From a phage, in assembly GCA_028030915.1 (NCBI GenBank), contig GCA_028030915.1_4867.1: a stretch of DNA of 64,000 nucleotides, one strand, 5' to 3'. The translations under genes and the position numbers were made by a program. How positions within the stretch are numbered: the stretch's first letter is position 1; the number at the start of each line of letters is the position of its first letter. The notes under the pieces are model-generated. The model made no database searches and was not told the DNA's origin. It saw only the letters and a list, made by a program, of their open reading frames with translations. Shown one piece after another: positions 1,239 through 60,454 of this stretch.

Positions 1239-1263
1239 CTCACCTAAGTAATATATATCTCAG
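1239..1263 (-). promoter_or_regulatory. conserved intergenic motif A (candidate phage promoter), copy 1
   Basis: Plus-strand ctcacctaagtaatatatatctcag; minus-strand reading ctgagatatatattacttaggtgag contains TATATTAC; the 22-mer ctcacctaagtaatatatatct is identical to 60430-60451; lies between a terminator and the next start codon. Confidence 0.4.
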
Positions 1264-1334: not shown

Positions 1335-1928
1335 TTAGACTTGCAGTAGTGTCCCCGAGTAAGTAATCGGGTCATTGTAGAACGCTTCACACTGGAGGCA
1401 AATACCATCAATGTTCGGTTCTTCAGTTCGCGACCATATCGCCGCACCACCTTGCAAAATCCATTCTCGACAGTTACGACCATAATCGTCGACAAGCAAA
1501 TTACCTCGCGAGGCGTAAGCTTTCTTCTGCCCTGAACTTTCGGTGACGATGACTTTGTCAGCTGGTACCCCAAAGTGCTTCATGAACCACCGTTGTTTTG
1601 AATCCACAACCAATTGGTGGTCGTAGTGATCTTCTGACCCAGAGGTGAGTATTGCCCAACTGTCGCAAAGTCTATCTACCGTTTCCAGGATTCGCTCTAC
1701 ACCCTCAATTGGTTCGAGTTTGTAAAACAAGTCAGGATCGTTCTGATACATCGAACGAACCAAACTACGACGACGGAGTTCAGGTAATGCGTTAAACTCT
1801 TTAATCGTCATTCCGGGAAAATGTGTGGATAAAACGTATTTACGCCAGCGTGCAAAAACGCCATCGCTATCCAGATAAAACATTTTCTTGTCCTTATTTT
1901 GTTCCCCAACACATGAAACCAACGTCAT
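1335..1928 (-). CDS. HAD-superfamily 5'(3')-deoxyribonucleotidase-like protein
   Basis: ORF track 197 aa; motif YLDSDGV (HAD motif I DxDG) near N-terminus and LVDDY near C-terminus; probable true start at internal Met (about 1883). Confidence 0.55.
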   Translation of the reverse strand: MTLVSCVGEQNKDKKMFYLDSDGVFARWRKYVLSTHFPGMTIKEFNALPELRRRSLVRSMYQNDPDLFYKLEPIEGVERILETVDRLCDSWAILTSGSEDHYDHQLVVDSKQRWFMKHFGVPADKVIVTESSGQKKAYASRGNLLVDDYGRNCREWILQGGAAIWSRTEEPNIDGICLQCEAFYNDPITYSGTLLQV

Positions 1929-1936
1929 GTAAAAAA

Positions 1937-2281
1937 TTACATCTGCTTTATTGCCATATTCGAACGATACGGCTCAGTGAGTAGAAAGTAAGTACGGCGA
2001 TAGTCGATTGTCACTCCAGCCTCTTTAATGTCGCAATAGAGTGCCATGATATCTAGCGACGCGATTCCGGAGATAATGTTATTAACCTTGCGTTTTGTAT
2101 CAAAACGTTCCGATAAGATTTCGGCAAGCACTTCCTTACCAGCCTTTCCTTGGATGGCGTAGATCGCTAACGCTTTCAGTTCTTCCGGCGTCAAACAACG
2201 AAGGGTCGGAGGTATTGCGATGTTAACGACCTTCATGCGTCCCCCTACTGTAGTGGTTTTTAGTTGTGATTTGCAGACCAC
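1937..2281 (-). CDS. hypothetical protein (114 aa)
   Basis: ORF track; gene array context. Confidence 0.5.
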   Translation of the reverse strand: MVCKSQLKTTTVGGRMKVVNIAIPPTLRCLTPEELKALAIYAIQGKAGKEVLAEILSERFDTKRKVNNIISGIASLDIMALYCDIKEAGVTIDYRRTYFLLTEPYRSNMAIKQM

Positions 2282-2291
2282 GAACTAGGCA

Positions 2292-2921
2292 CTACGGTGA
2301 AACGACGTATTCGTTCAGTGCGTTATCAAAAGCAGTACGCGCAGTGGCGACCGCCTCCGAGACCTTAACTTCACCGCGCTCCCAGTTGACGCTGATAATC
2401 AGCCGATAAAACTCGCCGGCTTTCAGCAGTTGACTGGTAGACAGGCGCACATCTTGTCCGAAACTTAAGTGATAGACAAAAACATGACCACCGTTGCGAA
2501 GTTCTGACAATCGCATCTCGCCCAGGTAAATCGGTTTGATATCCCAGTTCGACATGCGGTGTGGTACAATCCATACTTCACCCGCCCGATTCGGTTCCTG
2601 TGTCAGGTTGACCGAAGGCTGCGCTACATCACGTTCATCAAAACCGTAAAGATATAATCGTGTGGGTATTTCGATTGCAGAGAAGTTGTGACGTGCACCC
2701 TTAATCGCTCGCTCTAAATCTACCGAGCAGCAAATCCTGGGCACGGTCTTGTCTTCATCTGGCGCGCACGAAAGTGGGATACGCGGCGAAAACGTCGGTA
2801 TCTTACACTTGCTTAAATGCAGCGGCTGTTCAGTCAGTTTACGTAACGTCAACTTTTTGGCGACGTGCGGCATCTGGCGTTCACACCACCGCTCTAATGA
2901 CGGGTCGACATGTTCTGCCAT
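2292..2921 (-). CDS. hypothetical protein (209 aa)
   Basis: ORF track; gene array context. Confidence 0.55.
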   Translation of the reverse strand: MAEHVDPSLERWCERQMPHVAKKLTLRKLTEQPLHLSKCKIPTFSPRIPLSCAPDEDKTVPRICCSVDLERAIKGARHNFSAIEIPTRLYLYGFDERDVAQPSVNLTQEPNRAGEVWIVPHRMSNWDIKPIYLGEMRLSELRNGGHVFVYHLSFGQDVRLSTSQLLKAGEFYRLIISVNWERGEVKVSEAVATARTAFDNALNEYVVSP

Positions 2922-4528: not shown

Positions 4529-6004
4529 TTAAACTTTGCTCGGTACAGAAATAACCACACCGCCACAAATCCAATCCAGGACGTAGTTAATCATCCAGTC
4601 GGTTGCCACCTCGTCAGGTTGACGGTTAGCAATCATACCACGATGAATATCCAGCATCAGCTTGGACAGTTCGTATTCGCCGAAGACCTCAGTCGCGGAG
4701 ACTTTGATAACGAACTCAGTGATGTCTGTGGTGTCGGTTGTGAAGAACGAATCGATGAAGCTTGCCGTTGATTTCTTAACGAACTCCGGCGTTGCTACCT
4801 GACCGTCCTGTCCACGCCAGAACAGTTCAGGATCGGTTGCATCGATGGCCACGTTAAACGCTTGTTTCAGTGACTGGCGATTGCGTGTTACCCAACTGCT
4901 GTCGAGCTTAGCACGCTGAATCGCAGAACGGTGTCCCCAGGCAGCGATGTAGTCTTTCTGTTTTTCCAACAGTGAAGCTACACGCGTGGAGACATTGGTG
5001 TCACCTTCGTCCAGCTGGTAGATAGCGCCCAGCAACGCTTCAACGCTACCGCCTTTTTCCAGATAGTCGTCCATCACTTCCTGACAGATATACACTTTCT
5101 TCTCAACGTTGTCGTATCCGAAGACAATGTTACCGGTCTTGATGCGGGTAACGATGTTCTGGGTGTAGGCGTAAACCCAACCGATATAGCTGTAATGCAA
5201 CGGCAGCATCTGTGCTTTCCACTGCCCGCTATTCAGACCAGAGTCTTTCCACGGCATTTCCAGGTAGTAGCCAGAAAGCAGCATAAACAGAATGTTGCGT
5301 TTCAGGTTGTGCGGTGCCTGGTCGCTTACCGGAGAGAGCATGTTCCCTTCGAGCATGTTGCGAACGGCTTCGTTGATATTCCAACCCAGCGCATTCAACA
5401 GTTCTTTAACCAGATCGTCGTATGCTTTGCTGCCGGTTTCTGGCAGTTCGATATCGGCAGGGACGTTGGCTTTAACTGCAGGGTGCGTAGTACCATTGCC
5501 CAGCGGGTTTTCTACCGAATCAATTAATGCCTGTACCACCGGGGAGTTCAACGCCGGGTCCATACCTGCAGGCACAAGTGCCCATTCTTCGCTAACTGCC
5601 TGGTTTTCAATACCCTGGTTGTTTTGGATAACCAGTTGAACAAACGGCTGAATAACGTTACGGGCAAAGTCAAGCATACCCTGACAACGTTGGATAGCCA
5701 TACGTTTCAGTTCGAACAGTGTCGGTTCGTGGTCTTCGACGTTCAGCGTTTCTGGACCCGCTGCAGTATCTGCGATTACAGACGCTTCGCCTGTACCGGC
5801 CTGCGGCGTTTTCAGTGCAGTGATATCCGGCAGAGACTGGAAGAACTCTTCGTCAGTTATCTGCGTATCGAAAACGCTCTGCTGCGTAGTCGCTTTTGTC
5901 AGTAGACCAACAGGACTGTCAACGTCAGCTTCCAAACGAATCTGGTGTTGTTTCGCCAGTTTCATTGCGTTGGTGACAGCATTAAGTGAATATAAGTTGA
6001 TCAT
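4529..6004 (-). CDS. hypothetical protein (491 aa), possibly virion-associated
   Basis: ORF track; long ORF in operon with the large 1401-aa gene; no motif recognised. Confidence 0.65.
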   Translation of the reverse strand: MINLYSLNAVTNAMKLAKQHQIRLEADVDSPVGLLTKATTQQSVFDTQITDEEFFQSLPDITALKTPQAGTGEASVIADTAAGPETLNVEDHEPTLFELKRMAIQRCQGMLDFARNVIQPFVQLVIQNNQGIENQAVSEEWALVPAGMDPALNSPVVQALIDSVENPLGNGTTHPAVKANVPADIELPETGSKAYDDLVKELLNALGWNINEAVRNMLEGNMLSPVSDQAPHNLKRNILFMLLSGYYLEMPWKDSGLNSGQWKAQMLPLHYSYIGWVYAYTQNIVTRIKTGNIVFGYDNVEKKVYICQEVMDDYLEKGGSVEALLGAIYQLDEGDTNVSTRVASLLEKQKDYIAAWGHRSAIQRAKLDSSWVTRNRQSLKQAFNVAIDATDPELFWRGQDGQVATPEFVKKSTASFIDSFFTTDTTDITEFVIKVSATEVFGEYELSKLMLDIHRGMIANRQPDEVATDWMINYVLDWICGGVVISVPSKV

Positions 6005-35018: not shown

Positions 35019-35040
35019 GGATAGATAATATCTGTCTGAG
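35019..35040 (-). promoter_or_regulatory. conserved intergenic motif A, copy 2
   Basis: ggatagataatatctgtctgag; about 30 nt upstream of start 34988. Confidence 0.35.
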
Positions 35041-42585: not shown

Positions 42586-42607
42586 GTAGATAATATCTAT
42601 CTCAGAT
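42586..42607 (-). promoter_or_regulatory. conserved intergenic motif A, copy 3
   Basis: tgtagataatatctatctcaga; about 35 nt upstream of start 42553, followed by SD aaggag. Confidence 0.35.
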
Positions 42608-49959: not shown

Positions 49960-50226
49960 CTAGTTACGGTCGGAATTAAAGACGTGCCAGGTACTACGCC
50001 AGCGGAAGAATCGGGTTATGAAACCACGTATGTGGTAGCCTGAGAACAACATCCAGATGGTAAGAAAGAGTTGCGCCCATGGGGACGTGAGTTCCATCAG
50101 ATGTGCGACAATCGCACCGATTACCAACATTACCGTGGAGAATAACAAACTATACATCATCGGAATGTTGTGGCTATAGCGTTTCTCCATCCAGTAGAGA
50201 AAATTTATTAAACGTTTCACGAACAC
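49960..50226 (-). CDS. small membrane protein with two predicted TM segments (88 aa)
   Basis: Hydrophobic stretches LLFSTVMLVIGAIVAHL and LFLTIWMLFSGY; a holin-like role is speculative. Confidence 0.45.
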   Translation of the reverse strand: MFVKRLINFLYWMEKRYSHNIPMMYSLLFSTVMLVIGAIVAHLMELTSPWAQLFLTIWMLFSGYHIRGFITRFFRWRSTWHVFNSDRN

Positions 50227-50239
50227 ACACCCAAGAATT

Positions 50240-50273
50240 AAATAAAAGGTGGTCAGACCCGAAGGTCTGACCG
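50240..50273 (-). terminator. intrinsic terminator (UUCG loop)
   Basis: aaataaaaggt ggtcagacc cgaa ggtctgacc. Confidence 0.6.
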
Positions 50274-50277
50274 TTAA

Positions 50278-50871
50278 TTACGCTTCGGCCTCAAAGAACG
50301 GCTGGTTCGGTACCACTGCATATTCGAGCACGAAAAGATGTTCTGGGGCATCTTCTGCTCGCCACAGTTTGTGACACGTTGCCAGTTTTTCCAGGATGGT
50401 CAACCAGCTGAGCTGGCAGAAAGCACGATCGCCGAAGAACAGTTTCTGCAGTGCAATCGACACATCCATATACGCCTGTTTGAAGTCGAGTTCTTTATCG
50501 TAACCCGCCGACTGTCGCCACGTCAGCACGAAGCCTGCTTCGGTTTCGTTAATTGCTGGACGTAAACCACAAATCCACATCAGCGCCAGATTAACGTTCC
50601 AGTCGAATTCGATACCTTCGTCTTCGTCATCACCAAACGCCGCGTTTAACGCATCGTAGAAACCGTGGTTCTCTGCGAACCATTCGCCGTACTCAACGTA
50701 TACCGGTGCTTCGACAGCTTCCCCATCGACTTCACCGATAGGACGCTCTACATAGTTCGGGTTGGTTTGAACGTGTTCCGCACCCGCGCGAATTAATTCG
50801 TAGACATCTTTGGCGGTGATTTGTGCGGCTGTTTTAAGACCTGGATACCAGGGGCGTGTTACGAGTGTCAA
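50278..50871 (-). CDS. hypothetical protein (197 aa)
   Basis: ORF track. Confidence 0.55.
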   Translation of the reverse strand: MTLVTRPWYPGLKTAAQITAKDVYELIRAGAEHVQTNPNYVERPIGEVDGEAVEAPVYVEYGEWFAENHGFYDALNAAFGDDEDEGIEFDWNVNLALMWICGLRPAINETEAGFVLTWRQSAGYDKELDFKQAYMDVSIALQKLFFGDRAFCQLSWLTILEKLATCHKLWRAEDAPEHLFVLEYAVVPNQPFFEAEA

Positions 50872-51590
50872 AGCAATGCTCCTTTCATGATAGTGTTATT
50901 TGCCAGTAGTGTACCGGCCGCAGGTGATATTTTGGTGTACAGCGTATCCCAGATTTTCTGAAGTTCAGCGACGCGTTGGTCGTGGTCTTCCTTCGCAAAA
51001 GCAAGCTGACGTGTTTCAGCTTTCGGTGGTGTCATTTTCGCACCGTAGAATGCTGCGTCTTTTCGGTAGCTGGCCATCCAGCGTTTCCCGACCGGTGATT
51101 TCTTTTTAATCATCGCAACAGCAGCACCCTCACCGAAGCGGTAGCCTAAAGCGATTTCGGCTGTGCTCGGCTTGCGTTTGAGTTGTTTTGTCAGATGATC
51201 CTCGATGTGTTTCATGTAAACGGCAGCAAGCTGTACAGCATACTTCGGTTTATTAAGGTCCGCATTCTTTGGGATGTTAAGTTGTTTCCCATACAGACGT
51301 ATCATGGAGCGTTTAGTGCCTGTCGTCATTTGGACAACACTACTAGCACTGCTCGATTTATTCTTACCCACGTTTTTATTAAAACGGGATTCACGATAAA
51401 TGGTGGTCGCGAGCATCCCGGCATGTACGCCTTGTTTTCGAGATGCGGTGACGATGAGAGGTTTAATCTCATTGAACTGGTCCTGGATAAGGACGAATTC
51501 TTTTTGGTGTTTGTTACTGGTGGTCTGGTAAGAAGCGTTGCTGTTGAACGTAGTCATTGCTACCAGAAGAAACAAAATGGTGCGAAACAT
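50868..51590 (-). CDS. secreted lytic transglycosylase-like protein (SLT domain with N-terminal signal peptide)
   Basis: 240 aa; N-terminal MFRTILFLLVAMTTFNSNA is signal-peptide-like; SLT-like motifs TTIYRESRFN...SSASSVVQM and ALGYRFGEGAA. Confidence 0.6.
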   Translation of the reverse strand: MFRTILFLLVAMTTFNSNASYQTTSNKHQKEFVLIQDQFNEIKPLIVTASRKQGVHAGMLATTIYRESRFNKNVGKNKSSSASSVVQMTTGTKRSMIRLYGKQLNIPKNADLNKPKYAVQLAAVYMKHIEDHLTKQLKRKPSTAEIALGYRFGEGAAVAMIKKKSPVGKRWMASYRKDAAFYGAKMTPPKAETRQLAFAKEDHDQRVAELQKIWDTLYTKISPAAGTLLANNTIMKGALL

Positions 51591-51677: not shown

Positions 51678-51697
51678 TGATGATAATATCTATTTGA
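51678..51697 (-). promoter_or_regulatory. conserved intergenic motif A, copy 4
   Basis: tgatgataatatctatttga; overlaps stop of macrodomain gene, about 95 nt upstream of start 51590. Confidence 0.3.
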
Positions 51698-52823: not shown

Positions 52824-53087
52824 TTAGGGTAAAGTTGCCTCCCAGTCGTGGTGGTGAGGCTCAGGCAGCGTACCAAGCGCTGCTTTAATACACGTACTCA
52901 GCGGAGTATCATCGAACGCAACACGCCCGATAGTGCCCACGTTGATGTGTTTAGGATTTACGGGTAAGAACTCCTTCACCCGCTCGTACTCAGCCCAACA
53001 GACATCGGTGTTTAAAGCTGAAAACCCAGGACGGTGAAACATAAATAGCACTCCTCGCGTAAAAATACCCCACTCATAGTGAGGCAT
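52824..53087 (-). CDS. hypothetical protein (87 aa)
   Basis: ORF track. Confidence 0.45.
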   Translation of the reverse strand: MPHYEWGIFTRGVLFMFHRPGFSALNTDVCWAEYERVKEFLPVNPKHINVGTIGRVAFDDTPLSTCIKAALGTLPEPHHHDWEATLP

Positions 53088-53112: not shown

Positions 53113-53628
53113 CTATGCTACCGCAGTCCTTAAAGGTTCATCTGCTTCCGCAGGAACCTGCTTCTTAAATTCAAGCCATTGTCCGTCTGTAGAGACGGTC
53201 TTGTCAAAACCGCGAGCGGTAAAGAACGCAATACCAGCTTCCTGGCAAGCGTATATTCCCCCATGCGCACTGGTGAACTGTTCATTCACATCAAGCGCAT
53301 CAAAAATCTGCGTCATCGTTTTACGACGGCGTGCCATTTCAGACACGAACATCGTACGAATCTTCAGAACCCCAGCGATTACGCGATACAAACAGTAACC
53401 AACAGGGGTACCCCCTTCCAGAGCAACACAAGCACGGTTCCCCGCCAACAGTTTCTCCAGAGTGAGGTTCGGAATCTCACCTTTTTCGATATGGAGTATG
53501 GTACGTTGGTGGTTCAGAAATTTATAATGCAGCCCCAACAGCTGTTTATTTTGTGCTTCCGTTAAATCTGAGGATGAGGAAAGAATGACAATTTCGGCCA
53601 TGAGCTGAATTCCTAAGTGAGCTTTCAC
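53113..53628 (-). CDS. hypothetical protein, weakly GNAT-acetyltransferase-like (171 aa)
   Basis: ORF track; VGYCLYRV...MFVSE..RR...T.IFDAL....AC.EAG.AFF is only loosely compatible with a GNAT fold. Confidence 0.45.
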   Translation of the reverse strand: MKAHLGIQLMAEIVILSSSSDLTEAQNKQLLGLHYKFLNHQRTILHIEKGEIPNLTLEKLLAGNRACVALEGGTPVGYCLYRVIAGVLKIRTMFVSEMARRRKTMTQIFDALDVNEQFTSAHGGIYACQEAGIAFFTARGFDKTVSTDGQWLEFKKQVPAEADEPLRTAVA

Positions 53629-53747
53629 CTGCGATGAAAGCGAGTAACGAAGAATTGCGTTTGTGTTTTCTTAAGTTTACCGGTAAAGCTTAGCGGTGTA
53701 TACCGCCAGAGGTGAAGACCAGTTCTCTATCGGAACCGTGTCTTTAA

Positions 53748-54026
53748 TCAGCAACGACGTTGAAAACGTCGCGATGCTGAGGTAACCTTCCGTCGCCACA
53801 TTCGCTCATGGCGCTTCTGATTACCACGCCAGTCTTCCCCGACTGTACGTGAAACTGCAAAATCATCCGGCCCGCAGACTTCCGCGATGTCTGCTAGAAG
53901 GTTCTTTGAAGACCCTATAGCCATCCCCACACTCGAAAGAACGATACGCCGGGTTGGCTCGGCCGCCCCTGAACCCACGACCACGGGATCAGAGACTGTT
54001 TCACTGTCACATGATACTTCTCCCAC
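53748..54026 (-). CDS. hypothetical protein (92 aa)
   Basis: GTG start with aggaggg SD 10 nt upstream; Gly/Ser/Val-rich. Confidence 0.3.
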   Translation of the reverse strand: MGEVSCDSETVSDPVVVGSGAAEPTRRIVLSSVGMAIGSSKNLLADIAEVCGPDDFAVSRTVGEDWRGNQKRHERMWRRKVTSASRRFQRRC

Positions 54027-54138
54027 TTCGTAATTACCCTCCTGTTAAAACCAACCTTGCGTCAATGCAAGGATTGCGCCTAGGGCGTATGCGCCTGCTC
54101 CTAGTACCAGACTACAGATGATACACCCAACCCACTTC

Positions 54139-54270
54139 ACTAAAATAACCATGATGCCAGAAATGCTCCGATTGCACAGATGATAATCGTAATGCCAAGG
54201 TCTGTCCAGGTGGCACCATCATACGCACCTGTTGCAATCATGGCTGCGTTGACACTATTCACGACTGTCA
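54139..54270 (-). CDS. tiny hydrophobic peptide (43 aa)
   Basis: Own translation MTVVNSVNAAMIATGAYDGATWTDLGITIIICAIGAFLASWLF; its ATG overlaps the end of the upstream small ORF; not in ORF track (<60 aa). Confidence 0.3.
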
Positions 54271-54458
54271 TAAGCCGGGTCCCTTAAACGCGGGGGCTTG
54301 CTCCACAGATTACCGAAGTAAACCCCTTCTAAGAACACCAAAACAACTAAGCCCCAAAAGGCAGGCGTAGCGCGAGACATGAAAATACCGAGTAGCACCA
54401 CAGTGTGCATTACCACAACTGCCCAAAACTTTAAACGACCAGGTTTACGTCTTGCCAT
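54255..54458 (-). CDS. small membrane protein (about 67 aa from internal ATG)
   Basis: ORF track 54255-54503; preferred start MARRKPGRLKFWAVVVMHTVVLLGIFM... overlaps the stop of the upstream 34-aa peptide; two hydrophobic segments. Confidence 0.4.
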   Translation of the reverse strand: MARRKPGRLKFWAVVVMHTVVLLGIFMSRATPAFWGLVVLVFLEGVYFGNLWSKPPRLRDPAYDSRE

Positions 54459-54549
54459 GGAATGCCCATCCTTTCGTGCGGATAATCCAACCCCAGGCAC
54501 CACGAATCAACCACAGTGCAATACCGGTTAATACGATACCTTCAATCAT
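54445..54549 (-). CDS. tiny hydrophobic peptide (34 aa)
   Basis: Own translation MIEGIVLTGIALWLIRGAWGWIIRTKGWAFHGKT; start overlaps stop of upstream ORF (ATGA); not in ORF track. Confidence 0.3.
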   Translation of the reverse strand: MIEGIVLTGIALWLIRGAWGWIIRTKGWAFHGKT

Positions 54550-54737
54550 GTCCGTTCTCCTATATCTCGCCACTCACAACGCGTGTCAAAAAGGCGTTCT
54601 TTAAGAGCAGAGGCTAAATAGACAACTGCAGCGATAACCACCACGGCTGCACAAAAGGAGAGGTACAGTACCATCACAACAAACTGAAGGAACTGAAAAC
54701 CCCACCAAGCCCATAAGCGCCAACCTTTATGATGCAT
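54546..54737 (-). CDS. small membrane protein (63 aa)
   Basis: ORF track; hydrophobic core FVVMVLYLSFCAAVVVIAAVVYLA; overlaps the 3' end of the Rad50-like gene. Confidence 0.4.
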   Translation of the reverse strand: MHHKGWRLWAWWGFQFLQFVVMVLYLSFCAAVVVIAAVVYLASALKERLFDTRCEWRDIGERT

Positions 54738-57237
54738 ATTTGATTATTACCCCTTCGTTATACACCGGTGGAAGCGTTACACCTTCTGGTTCTACGACAC
54801 AGTAGGTGGCTTCGTTAAGTTTAGAATGAACTTCCGCTTCATGCGAAACGACCAGCAATTGAGAAAACTCTCCCGACAACGCCAACGATTTAATGAAGTT
54901 AACTAATCGGTTTTTGTGTTCTTCATCCATGCCTTCAGATGGTTCATCCAATAACAAAGGATAATTTTGTAAACCAAGTGCTTTATACGCCGTTAAACGA
55001 AACATCATGTTGAAAATGATACGCTGTGCTTTTGAACCTTTCTTCACGTCAGGTACCAGTTCTTCATGGTCTTTTAATCGTACCGGGAATGTGTAATCCA
55101 AATCCCCGTCGGTTAAATCGCACGGAATAACCTGCATCGGATATGCCCACACCATTTCGATATACCGATTCATTAAATCCATGATGCGTGTAATCGCAGC
55201 ATAAAAGTAACGACGCAATAATCCTTTTTCGGGGGAGACGGCATTGATAATCAATCTGGCATGGTGATGCTCTTTGAGCAGTTCAGCTTGTTCCTTTTCC
55301 AGTTCCGCTAAACGTGCAATAGCCCCTTCCATTTGACGAAACCGTTCACGAGCTGAAGTATACGCATCGAGCTTCGCTTCGCGTCGGTTTAACAACTCGC
55401 GAACCACGACGTTGTTAACGGAGATGTTCATTTCCGATACCAGATGTTCGTAGCCCTTTTGGAAACGTTCGATTGCTTCTTTGGTTTGTTGCAGTTGGAT
55501 GGTTTCGCGTTCCAGCTCATTGGCTTGTCTGCGGTATTCTATCAGTCGACGGTTAGCCCCGTCTAGTTGTGAACGGATATGTTCAATTTTCTGACTCAGC
55601 GCACCATCAACATTACCTACTGCGGCAACAGCCTCTTGCCATTCCCGTTCCGCTGTTGCAAGCTTCGCTGATTGACGCAGATACATCATGGCCGAATCTA
55701 ACTCTTCGGTAAAGGCACGTGCAATGGCACCATAACGATCCCGCGACGTGGTGAAGATATCCAACTCTTGCAGTTTACGGAAAAACAAACCGACAACGGG
55801 ATGGTTGGAATACGACATGACAATTTCGCGAATCGTACGTAAGCTACGGACGTCCTCTTCAATCTCTTTGCGGTCACGCAAAAGACTATCCATTTCGTCT
55901 TTCAGCTGTTTTTTCCAACCTTCATTATCGTTGATGGCCTTTTCAGTTTCAGGTAACGACTTACGAATCCCAGGACGGAAACGGTGGTTACACTGTGGAC
56001 AATCAACTTCTGCAGTTTCTAAGAAGTGTTGACGGTCGTGGTATAAACCGTGTAGCACATTCTCACAACGTTGCAACTTTTCAGATAGACCCGCAGAGGT
56101 TAAATCCATACCCTGTAAACGCTTCTCTAACGCTCCCAGGCGCTCTGTTGTCTTTAACTGGTCCAGATGCATGGACAACGGTAAATTCCAGTTACAGGCG
56201 TCGTTTAACGCGTTCTGAATGCTATCCACGTCGATGCGGGTACCTTCAAACAGAGCCGGGAACATCCAGTTCTGTTGGAACGTTGCCAGTTCCTGTTTTA
56301 AGCTGTCGATTGTTTGTTTTAGACCGGTATGGTTGCGCATCAGATATGTTTGACGCGACTCCTCATCCAGTAGCTGTGACAACTCTTTATTGTACATGTT
56401 GCATTCAGTTTCAGCAGAGGCAGCTTGCTCACGCCAGGCAACCACACGACTTTGAAACTCGTTAATCAGTTCGTCAGAAGGCAGAACGCCATAACGTTCC
56501 ATAATGAGTTTTACAGCCGGTTGCAACGAAGCAATGCGTTTCCGGATACTGTCAACCGAAACAGCGTTATCTAAACCGGGCCTTGCTTCAATTGTGCGGT
56601 TTAATTCTTGAAGCTCAGCATCGAGTTCTTTCAAACGAACTTCTAAACGTGCACGATCTTCTTCATCGTCAACGACGCGCATTTTTGCTTCGCCGATTTT
56701 TCGTCCGGTGTGTTCGATGGCCCCGCTTAAACTGGAAGCGAGTTTACGCAAACGTCGATAGCAGCCAACAACGTATGTCAGATCAGATTCTGACATTAAC
56801 GTAAACCATTTGCGACGAACTTCGGTAGTGGCGTCAGTTAATAAGGTCTCGCCATTAATTAACTCTTTGATTTCTTTGGTGATTCCGGTTAACTGTTCCA
56901 CCATGGAGTTGTAAACTTTGGCGTTTACCGAGTCCACAATGGGGACGCCTTTGGTGATATTGAAAATACTACAAGACAAAGAAGACCCACGTCGCAGGAC
57001 TTCAAATTTAAGACGGTCGTCCCCGACTAACGCGTAGTTAGTGTAAGAACCGCCTTCGCGGAATTCAGATTTTGCTGGAGCTAAGGGGAGAAAAACAGAC
57101 AGGAGGCTTGTTTTACCGCAACCATTGCCACCGAGGATGATGGTAACGGTTGACTTAAGGGTGAAATCAAACGTTTCGATTTCGTGTAACCCCATGCCGG
57201 TAAATCCTTTCAAAATGATACGTTCGACCTTGAGCAT
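54727..57237 (-). CDS. Rad50/SbcC-like ATPase (836 aa)
   Basis: Walker A ILGGNGCGKTSLL near N-terminus; long central coiled-coil-like region with CPQC zinc-hook-like motif; Walker B/D-loop LLLDEPSEGMDEE and H-loop VVSHE near C-terminus. Confidence 0.8.
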   Translation of the reverse strand: MLKVERIILKGFTGMGLHEIETFDFTLKSTVTIILGGNGCGKTSLLSVFLPLAPAKSEFREGGSYTNYALVGDDRLKFEVLRRGSSLSCSIFNITKGVPIVDSVNAKVYNSMVEQLTGITKEIKELINGETLLTDATTEVRRKWFTLMSESDLTYVVGCYRRLRKLASSLSGAIEHTGRKIGEAKMRVVDDEEDRARLEVRLKELDAELQELNRTIEARPGLDNAVSVDSIRKRIASLQPAVKLIMERYGVLPSDELINEFQSRVVAWREQAASAETECNMYNKELSQLLDEESRQTYLMRNHTGLKQTIDSLKQELATFQQNWMFPALFEGTRIDVDSIQNALNDACNWNLPLSMHLDQLKTTERLGALEKRLQGMDLTSAGLSEKLQRCENVLHGLYHDRQHFLETAEVDCPQCNHRFRPGIRKSLPETEKAINDNEGWKKQLKDEMDSLLRDRKEIEEDVRSLRTIREIVMSYSNHPVVGLFFRKLQELDIFTTSRDRYGAIARAFTEELDSAMMYLRQSAKLATAEREWQEAVAAVGNVDGALSQKIEHIRSQLDGANRRLIEYRRQANELERETIQLQQTKEAIERFQKGYEHLVSEMNISVNNVVVRELLNRREAKLDAYTSARERFRQMEGAIARLAELEKEQAELLKEHHHARLIINAVSPEKGLLRRYFYAAITRIMDLMNRYIEMVWAYPMQVIPCDLTDGDLDYTFPVRLKDHEELVPDVKKGSKAQRIIFNMMFRLTAYKALGLQNYPLLLDEPSEGMDEEHKNRLVNFIKSLALSGEFSQLLVVSHEAEVHSKLNEATYCVVEPEGVTLPPVYNEGVIIKYAS

Positions 57238-57290: not shown

Positions 57291-57322
57291 AAAAAAGAAG
57301 AAATGGAACCCCGAAGGGTTCC
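57291..57322 (-). terminator. intrinsic terminator (UUCG loop)
   Basis: aaaaaagaagaaat ggaaccc cgaa gggttcc. Confidence 0.55.
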
Positions 57323-57333
57323 AGAGAGGAGAG

Positions 57334-58644: not shown

Positions 58645-59028
58645 TTACTGGTCGAGCGCTACTGAACCACGCACCACCCCTTGCTGTTCAATAACCAGGA
58701 GGCGTTGTTTGGTTTTCGTATTGTAAGCGAGCGACGCGCGAAGCGTCGGGTCGCACGTTATTGTCTCTACTGGCACAATCTCTTGTGCCTTTGAGTTCAA
58801 CAGAAAGTAGTAACCTGCCGGACAAGTTTCCTCGCCCTTTGCGTGGACTAGGATGTACTCGTCGTGCCGGCTGACTTCTTCACATCTACCATCGTCGCCA
58901 GTACAGACTTCGAACGAAGGCGGGTTGTACTGATACGGTGTGCCTGGTAGTAAATCTTCTACGCTAGTTGTAGCTGAAGCAGAAGCGGTAAAGAACACCG
59001 CCACGATAATACCCATAAATCCACGCAT
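58645..59028 (-). CDS. small secreted Cys-containing protein (127 aa)
   Basis: N-terminal MRGFMGIIVAVFFTASASA looks like a cleavable signal peptide; 6 Cys in the mature part. Confidence 0.55.
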   Translation of the reverse strand: MRGFMGIIVAVFFTASASATTSVEDLLPGTPYQYNPPSFEVCTGDDGRCEEVSRHDEYILVHAKGEETCPAGYYFLLNSKAQEIVPVETITCDPTLRASLAYNTKTKQRLLVIEQQGVVRGSVALDQ

Positions 59029-59041
59029 GTTGTTTCCTTAC

Positions 59042-59452
59042 TTAAAAGTCGAGTTTATTGATGCCTACATTTTTCTTAATCGTAGGGTCATACATGATAA
59101 CCGTCAGGGCATTGTCGCCTGGGTCGCGTGTAAACTCAGCAACGGCTTCACCACTGCAGGCTTGGTTATCATTATAGTTCATGGATTCGGCTTGCCCGGT
59201 TGCCATGTTAATAACCCCGTATTCAGGGTCGCCACATGCGACACCGCCCATCGTTTTCACTAACAGGTAACGGTTGTTATCGGACATCGCAACGATCTGG
59301 CAGCTACCGCCTTGTACGTCAGAGTTCTGGCACCAGAACGGCCCGCCGTATTCGTGATCGTTAACAACTTTTGGTAACTCGATACTCCCAGCGCGAGCGA
59401 AGAAGCTAATGGCTAGAGTAGCAAGTAAAACTGGTAATAAAAAATGTTTCAT
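59042..59452 (-). CDS. small secreted Cys-containing protein (136 aa)
   Basis: Signal peptide MKHFLLPVLLATLAISFFARA; shares PFWC...C.(I/V)V motif with the next gene upstream. Confidence 0.6.
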   Translation of the reverse strand: MKHFLLPVLLATLAISFFARAGSIELPKVVNDHEYGGPFWCQNSDVQGGSCQIVAMSDNNRYLLVKTMGGVACGDPEYGVINMATGQAESMNYNDNQACSGEAVAEFTRDPGDNALTVIMYDPTIKKNVGINKLDF

Positions 59453-60429: not shown

Positions 60430-60454
60430 CTCACCTAAGTAATATATATCTGAG
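60430..60454 (-). promoter_or_regulatory. conserved intergenic motif A, copy 5
   Basis: ctcacctaagtaatatatatctgag; immediately after stop of gene 60460-61056. Confidence 0.4.

Follow-up and report, generated by a model that had tools for sequence, protein, structure and literature searches.

A conserved chain of overlapping genes for predicted membrane micro-proteins behind the SbcC-like gene of SPN3US-like jumbo phages

The phage DNA analysed here, a stretch of 64,000 nucleotides (nt) referred to as the window (NCBI GenBank assembly GCA_028030915.1, contig GCA_028030915.1_4867.1), contains on its minus strand a chain of five tiny overlapping genes for hydrophobic proteins, named A to E in this work, which directly follows a gene for an SbcC/Rad50-like protein and is continued by a sixth small gene, F. 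Judged from sequence comparison with related phages, this cassette consists of six independent protein-coding genes rather than of one damaged gene. Positions 53600-55000 of the window share 99.0-99.6% identity over their full length with the Salmonella phages MET_P1_082_240, SEGD1 and SPN3US (megablast), all of them Seoulvirus jumbo phages of 240 kb, and by this measure the window belongs to an SPN3US-like giant Salmonella phage (Seoulvirus).

The SbcC/Rad50-like gene (54727..57237, on the minus strand like every gene, hairpin and ribosome-binding motif located below) encodes an SMC-domain protein of 836 amino acids (aa) and is the equivalent of SPN3US gp186, which is essential in SPN3US, as determined by amber mutation (Thomas et al., PMC5105663). 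Gene A (54546..54737; 63 aa from an ATG) is SPN3US gp187, for which the same study reported a length of 63 aa and a predicted transmembrane domain, and which it likened to T4 gp47.1 (Thomas et al., PMC5105663). Gene B (54445..54549) encodes 34 aa from its ATG, or 42 aa from an upstream GTG, and gene C (54255..54458; SPN3US gp188) encodes 67 aa from its ATG, or 82 aa from a GTG. Gene D (54140..54271; 43 aa; SPN3US gp189) and gene E (54045..54152; 35 aa) both start with ATG, while gene F (53748..54026; 92 aa) starts with GTG. An acetyltransferase gene (53113..53628; SPN3US gp191) lies further downstream. All four small minus-strand open reading frames (ORFs) that a first-pass annotation had listed behind the Rad50/SbcC-like gene are present (63, 34, 67 and 43 aa, corresponding to A-D). 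Both the 92-aa ORF and the additional hydrophobic frame that it had placed after them exist as F and E, but E measures 35 aa and not 30 aa. In SPN3US, gp187-189 are already annotated as hypothetical proteins, and the remainder of the cassette (B, E and F) is unannotated. The other SPN3US papers that were searched make no mention of gp188 or gp189.

The case for separate genes rests on a comparison of the syntenic interval between the SbcC-like and the acetyltransferase gene across four genera. The relatives included SPAsTU (approx. 72% nucleotide identity) and pEa_SNUABM_29 for Seoulvirus, Asesino and phiEaH2 for Erskinevirus, ChrisDB, pEa_SNUABM_9, Huxley and pSal-SNUABM-04 for Machinavirus, and Wellington for Wellingtonvirus. 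Every compared relative contains a series of separate small ORFs in differing frames at the same position; a colinear, uninterrupted ORF was not found in any of ten relatives from the four genera. The order A-B-C-(D)-E-F directly behind the SbcC-like gene is kept in these four genera of SPN3US-like jumbo phages. Codon comparison between the window and its relatives, which share 34-85% amino-acid identity, gave ratios of non-synonymous to synonymous substitution rates (dN/dS) of 0.06-0.44 for each of A-F in the called frames (A, 0.23-0.30; B, 0.06-0.44; C, 0.16-0.35; D, 0.08), with a synonymous divergence (dS) that ranges from 0.85 to >3 and is largely saturated. The ratio of non-synonymous to synonymous differences (pN/pS) is 0.14-0.62 in the called frame versus 0.94-2.2 in the two shifted frames of the same alignments, and substitutions between the window and the relatives are enriched at third codon positions. 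A-F are each under purifying selection in their own frame.

The first-pass annotation had offered two readings of the chain, an operon of translationally coupled membrane micro-proteins or one membrane-protein gene broken by several frameshifts. The latter, in the form of a single polytopic protein whose gene is disrupted as a pseudogene or by sequencing errors, would explain why the frame changes at every junction and why all pieces are hydrophobic, and broken versions of these ORFs are indeed carried by the error-rich SPFM assemblies. The alignments of ten SPFM records (SPFM1, 5, 6, 7, 9, 10, 12, 14, 15 and 20) to the window fall into 18-40 pieces, and the proteins annotated in these records at the cassette locus are truncated or chimeric; the records are apparently error-rich assemblies and unfit as evidence for frameshifts. 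However, in the cassette region no indel separates the window from SPN3US, SEGD1, SaP7, SPFM2 and SPLA1a, and relatives at 45-85% amino-acid identity retain the separate ORFs with the same start and stop sites, with each frame selected separately. In addition, entire members of the cassette have been lost cleanly, and the concatenated A-E product (242 aa) yields no NCBIfam match and only a sub-threshold DUF2976 match in Pfam. Because separate ORFs occur in four genera, each frame is under selection, members are lost cleanly and the concatenated product matches no family, a single gene broken by frameshifts is ruled out as an explanation and is given an extremely low probability. Alignment to related phages, the check that had been proposed for this alternative, revealed no relative with a single intact ORF, and the separateness of the micro-protein genes is strongly supported by the comparative evidence from frames, selection and synteny.

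Among seven close relatives that were checked for indels (SPN3US, SEGD1, SPLA1a, SPFM2, SaP7, EC001 and Lh1B), a single indel was detected, an extra C in a C5 run of EC001 and Lh1B, which changes the tail of C. In these two Escherichia phages, the insertion (window position ~54297) gives C a short unrelated tail in place of the conserved PPRLRDPAYDSRE, and it could be either a natural variant or an error in the sequencing. In the good-quality close relatives, all six genes are intact.

The members of the cassette differ in how well they are conserved. Profile-profile comparison (hhalign) between Seoulvirus/Erskinevirus and Machinavirus/Wellingtonvirus identifies both B (probability 95.6%, E = 1e-8) and E (probability 97.4%, E = 1e-11) as homologous, and F can be aligned throughout the four genera, where it shares an invariant WRG motif and a basic tail. 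For C and its Machinavirus counterpart C', only a weak signal was obtained, and homology between A and the first-position proteins (A') of Machinavirus and Wellingtonvirus was undetectable. The two-helix proteins in the first and third positions are thus less stable than B, E and F, and sequence comparison defines B, E and F as the cross-genus core. C is absent in pEa_SNUABM_29, where D follows B after 13 nt, and D is found only in Seoulvirus and is missing in Erskinevirus, Machinavirus and Wellingtonvirus.

In the Erwinia phage Wellington, three extra genes are inserted in the chain. One of them, gp208, encodes a 128-aa soluble protein with a HEAVH (HExxH-type) motif and is located between the first membrane protein and B (1923..2309 of the compared Wellington stretch); the inserted genes further along encode membrane proteins of 32 aa and 101 aa.

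SbcC homologues occur in 284 phage records, and the chain was not found after SbcC in the phiKZ-like phage OMKO1, in RAY, in Goslar or in the Vibrio phage pVp-JHP1101, while Derbicusvirus has different membrane proteins at the post-SbcC position. The gene order of pVp-JHP1101 is SbcC, small protein, macro-domain protein, small protein and lytic transglycosylase, an order common to the SPN3US-like phages. That this order is shared without the micro-protein chain suggests that the syntenic block is older and that the chain entered it by insertion. Searches by tblastn with B and E gave matches only in this clade, and there only at the cassette locus. For C, a search among 5.8 billion clustered proteins returned close relatives only, and scanning 1.84 billion representatives in full with HMMER gave four matches, i.e., two error-rich SPFM fragments, one Erskinevirus-like protein and one spurious repeat protein. 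A homologous-protein search with F likewise found close relatives only. A, B, C, D and F belong to PHROG families of unassigned function (16515, 13448, 18173, 29196 and 15402, respectively), E has no PHROG family, and comparison of A-F with Pfam and NCBIfam gave nothing significant.

The existing annotation of the interval is erratic, with one to five of the six small genes called among close relatives. F is unannotated in SPN3US, SEGD1 and most relatives. The 40-aa SPN3US gp190 (window 53677..53799) is an out-of-frame shadow ORF over the 3' end of F, and a 74-aa ORF annotated in pEa_SNUABM_29 is likewise an out-of-frame shadow of F. Independent gene calls on public assemblies yield the identical 92-aa F product, whose GTG start is conserved in Seoulvirus.

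A window of 19 residues with a mean Kyte-Doolittle hydropathy of ≥1.6 is present in each of A-E and in no part of F, in agreement with the first-pass description of one or two transmembrane-like segments per ORF: by hydropathy windows, A-E each contain one or two hydrophobic helices. The clustering of such ORFs exceeds chance. The 697-nt region contains five hydrophobic ATG-ORFs on the minus strand and six when both strands are counted, as compared to a mean of 0.37 and a maximum of three, again on both strands, in 500 shuffles of the same region; the entire 64-kb window contains 27 on both strands. No paralogy was detected by comparison among the five proteins, and their hydropathy and charge patterns are compatible with membrane insertion.

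A and C each contain approx. 40 hydrophobic residues, which leaves room for two helices. A, which probably forms a helical hairpin as far as its sequence tells, has a conserved charged tail (RLFDxRCEWR). C combines a basic N-terminus with two hydrophobic helices, the second of which carries an invariant Glu, and a conserved tail (PPxLRDPAYDxRE). B consists of one hydrophobic helix, which holds a conserved Arg/Lys, and a basic, aromatic tail (KGWAFxGKT). D lacks Lys and Arg and has a C-terminal hydrophobic helix ending in WLF. E is hydrophobic almost throughout, contains Gly/Ala-rich packing motifs and ends in a conserved ALTQGWF motif that is kept through synonymous codon changes. F is of a different nature, with an acidic N-terminal half that is predicted to be disordered, the invariant WRG and then a long basic C-terminal helix. 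The AlphaFold model of F reaches a mean predicted local distance difference test (pLDDT) score of 58, and pLDDT values of 86-92 only for residues 70-90, which correspond to the C-terminal helix.

The geometry of the junctions is compatible with a translationally coupled operon, with overlapping stop and start codons on the same strand from SbcC to E. The last 11 nt of the SbcC gene overlap the start of A, A and B overlap by 4 nt (ATGA), B and C by 14 nt, C and D by 17 nt, and D and E by 13 nt. E and F do not overlap but are separated by an 18-nt gap that contains the Shine-Dalgarno-like sequence AGGAGGG (54037..54043), 10 nt upstream of the GTG of F. The first-pass annotation had described the overlaps as ATGA overlaps; each of B-E does start inside the previous ORF, while ATGA occurs only at the A/B junction. 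Shine-Dalgarno-like runs are located upstream of B (AGGAG with a 7-nt spacer), C, D and F, and GGAGG-like motifs also precede F in relatives. Overlaps of 1-23 nt are found at most junctions in the relatives and are kept across genera. At each junction, the overlapping ORFs are shifted by +1 or -1 in frame, as would be needed for programmed ribosomal frameshifting to fuse neighbouring ORFs, but this is disfavoured because no overlap contains an X XXY YYZ slippery heptamer and because overlap length, like relative frame, varies between genera; each downstream ORF also has its own conserved ATG or GTG, mostly with a purine-rich Shine-Dalgarno-like run, and frameshifting is scarcely credible here.

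From this geometry, A-F would be translated from the SbcC mRNA. The start codons of A-E fall within the preceding gene, with overlaps of 4-17 nt, and most of them follow a purine run that resembles a Shine-Dalgarno sequence. Finishing ribosomes could therefore open or re-use the next start, and A-E are proposed to be translationally coupled. Coupling would provide roughly fixed subunit ratios and side-by-side insertion into the host inner membrane. The composition of the cassette would allow a hetero-oligomeric bundle of about seven helices. A hetero-oligomer is suggested by the invariant Glu in the second helix of C, the Arg/Lys in the helix of B and the Gly/Ala-rich motifs of E. B probably has its N-terminus outside and its basic C-terminus inside, C, with its strongly basic N-terminus, probably has both ends in the cytoplasm, and F could be located on the cytoplasmic face. 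Translation, membrane insertion and complex formation of A-E are thus predicted properties. The complex may target the host envelope during infection, by superinfection exclusion, by control of permeability or by control of a host membrane protein; confidence in this envelope-directed role is low, and it is drawn by analogy. The T4 proteins Imm and Sp are small inner-membrane superinfection-exclusion proteins encoded among DNA-metabolism genes. The cassette resembles them in gene position and size class, but they are encoded by single genes and not by an overlapping chain, and there is no sequence relationship. Still arguing from such analogies, we regard an envelope role as likelier than a function in DNA repair or that of the main holin, and we would rank an envelope-directed accessory role before lysis timing, and lysis timing before an SbcCD membrane anchor. 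Taken together, an explanation that combines six genes, translational coupling, a membrane bundle and an envelope-directed role is considered reasonably probable.

Several observations weigh against this explanation. A and E have Shine-Dalgarno-like motifs that are either weak or distant from the start codon, and there is a weak terminator-like hairpin at the 3' end of E, which is not conserved. Because C has been lost in one phage and D in most genera, the composition of the cassette is variable, and the case for an obligate complex is weakened. Functional annotation is absent in Pfam, NCBIfam and PHROGs, and homologues outside the clade were not found in the searches described above; the functional guess is therefore one of analogy. 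The hairpin in E (54055..54072) has a 6-bp stem, is followed by TTGGTTTT and falls within the final codons of this gene. Some genomes of Seoulvirus and Erskinevirus contain it, but SPAsTU and Machinavirus do not; it is probably incidental, with conservation at this site acting at the protein level.

Regarding transcription, a terminator-like hairpin with an 8-bp stem, a TTCG loop and a T-run (57304..57323) is located between the upstream gene and SbcC and probably marks the 5' end of the transcription unit. A second hairpin with a 9-bp stem and a TTCG loop (50251..50272) follows an SLT-domain lysin gene and the gene after it, and is a possible 3' boundary. No hairpin of comparable strength was found between the two on the coding strand. 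Because strong hairpins flank this block with nothing comparable in between, the cassette may share a transcript with the genes for the acetyltransferase, a macro-domain protein and a signal-peptide-bearing transglycosylase. The latter is the SLT-domain protein (50868..51590; SPN3US gp198, annotated as 'putative endolysin'), which has the signal-peptide-like start MFRTILFLLVAMTTFNSNA. Matches to sigma-70-type promoters occur at chance level only. The motif GATA(T/G)ATATTA(C/T) is present in seven copies at ≤1 mismatch versus 0.6 expected, mostly in intergenic regions and on the coding strand (1248..1259, 35020..35036, 42590..42601, 51683..51694 and 60439..60450), and probably represents a class of phage promoter. 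One pair is found in a divergent intergenic region and one copy directly before the SLT-domain lysin gene; no copy is located near SbcC or the cassette.

A rival reading is that of a lysis cassette, in which A and/or C would serve as holin, pinholin or antiholin for the SLT-domain lysin 2.7 kb downstream, and B, D and E would modulate the timing. Class II holins are typically small proteins with two hydrophobic helices and charged tails. A and C (63-67 aa) fit this shape, and the size, the two predicted helices and the charged C-terminal tail of both are those of a class II holin according to hydropathy and charge counts. The lysin, with its signal-like N-terminus, is encoded on the same strand and between the same pair of strong hairpins. 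Lysis cassettes of actinophages are known to contain tandem arrays of small, holin-like membrane proteins (PMC9671378, PMC13056207). Thus, the likeness to class II holins and pinholins, such as S68 of phage 21, and to the actinophage proteins extends to the size, helices and tails of A and C and to the arrangement of genes in a row. In contrast to these systems, the cassette lies away from the lysin, from which it is separated by seven predicted ORFs of ≥70 aa (F and six unrelated genes), and a promoter-like motif directly precedes the lysin gene. No holin family match was found for the cassette proteins in Pfam, PHROGs or NCBIfam, and none of the four matches of C among the 1.84 billion representatives falls outside the clade. 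The cassette also differs from the known systems in that B, D and E lack a soluble domain and that at least one natural relative, pEa_SNUABM_29, does without C. The Vibrio relative moreover retains the order of SbcC, macro-domain gene and transglycosylase without the chain. Finally, an 88-aa ORF with two helices and a weak, sub-threshold DUF4231 match (49960..50226) is nearer to the lysin, two genes downstream of it and beyond the second terminator, and by its position it is a better-placed holin candidate than the cassette. A lysis function of the cassette is accordingly held to be unlikely.

A two-component spanin was also considered and rejected; a conserved lipobox Cys is absent, and all proteins are too short for a periplasmic domain. 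The sole Cys-containing lipobox candidate is that of the window's E, and SPAsTU lacks it.

A more far-reaching proposal is that the cassette encodes a split multi-subunit membrane complex unique to the SPN3US-like nucleus-forming jumbo phages, with B, E and F as core and two-helix subunits that can be exchanged. Synthesis of this complex would be linked to the essential SbcC nuclease, and its function would be new to the phage family, e.g., inner-membrane tethering of DNA processing or of capsid assembly, or else a new control of envelope or lysis made solely of micro-proteins. This proposal is quite unlikely in our estimate.

It is very unlikely that the cassette provides a membrane anchor for an SbcCD-like nuclease, in which A, possibly together with others, would tether gp186/gp27 to the inner membrane, an idea that was raised for gp187 by Thomas et al. 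(PMC5105663). In all genera of the clade, Derbicusvirus included, a gene for a small membrane protein overlaps the SbcC stop codon or directly adjoins it, and in T4 the gene for a predicted membrane protein of 46 aa overlaps gene 47 by 4 nt. However, the first-position proteins show no detectable homology between genera, and more distant SbcC-bearing chimalliviruses (phiKZ-like OMKO1, RAY, Goslar and the Vibrio phage) contain no such gene. These phages are thought to replicate their DNA in a protein-shelled nucleus, away from the membrane, which also counts against an anchor. The likeness to T4 gp47.1 consists in a tiny membrane-protein gene that overlaps an SbcC/D-type gene (by 4 nt in T4 and by 11 nt in the case of A), but the T4 gene is a single ORF upstream of an SbcD-like gene, whereas the cassette is a chain downstream of an SbcC-like gene. 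In blastp comparisons of A-E with T4 gp47.1, whose own role is merely proposed, E-values were ≥0.28 over 7-17 residues, i.e., there is no similarity. AcrZ, KdpF and CydX are single-helix accessory subunits of 30-50 aa that are often missed by annotation. They bind a large partner from the same operon, unlike the cassette, which encodes no large membrane partner.

Outside the cassette, the window differs from SPN3US at 52825..52863, where approx. 38 nt stand in for approx. 551 nt of SPN3US (4714..5264 of the compared SPN3US stretch). Because of this replacement, the window phage lacks SPN3US gp193 (172 aa), and the C-terminus of its gp192 homologue differs from that of SPN3US. The adjacent homologues of SPN3US gp183 and gp182 (58645..59028 and 59042..59452; approx. 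130 aa each) have signal-peptide-like N-termini, which suggests that they are secreted or periplasmic phage proteins.

The cassette is a real, conserved and clade-specific set of membrane micro-protein genes. It is a fairly ordinary finding, and an unsurprising one, because clusters of overlapping small membrane-protein genes are common in phage genomes; its main value lies in the correction of annotation. Since the core genes B, E and F are absent from the annotation of SPN3US and gp190 is a wrong-frame shadow ORF, the model genome of this group needs to be corrected, and callers of small proteins are inconsistent at the cassette interval. How nucleus-forming jumbo phages handle the inner membrane of their host is a poorly understood area. 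SPN3US has a working amber-mutant genetic system, and the combination of such genetics with a conserved, clade-specific set of genes therefore offers a tractable entry into the dealings of jumbo phages with the inner membrane.

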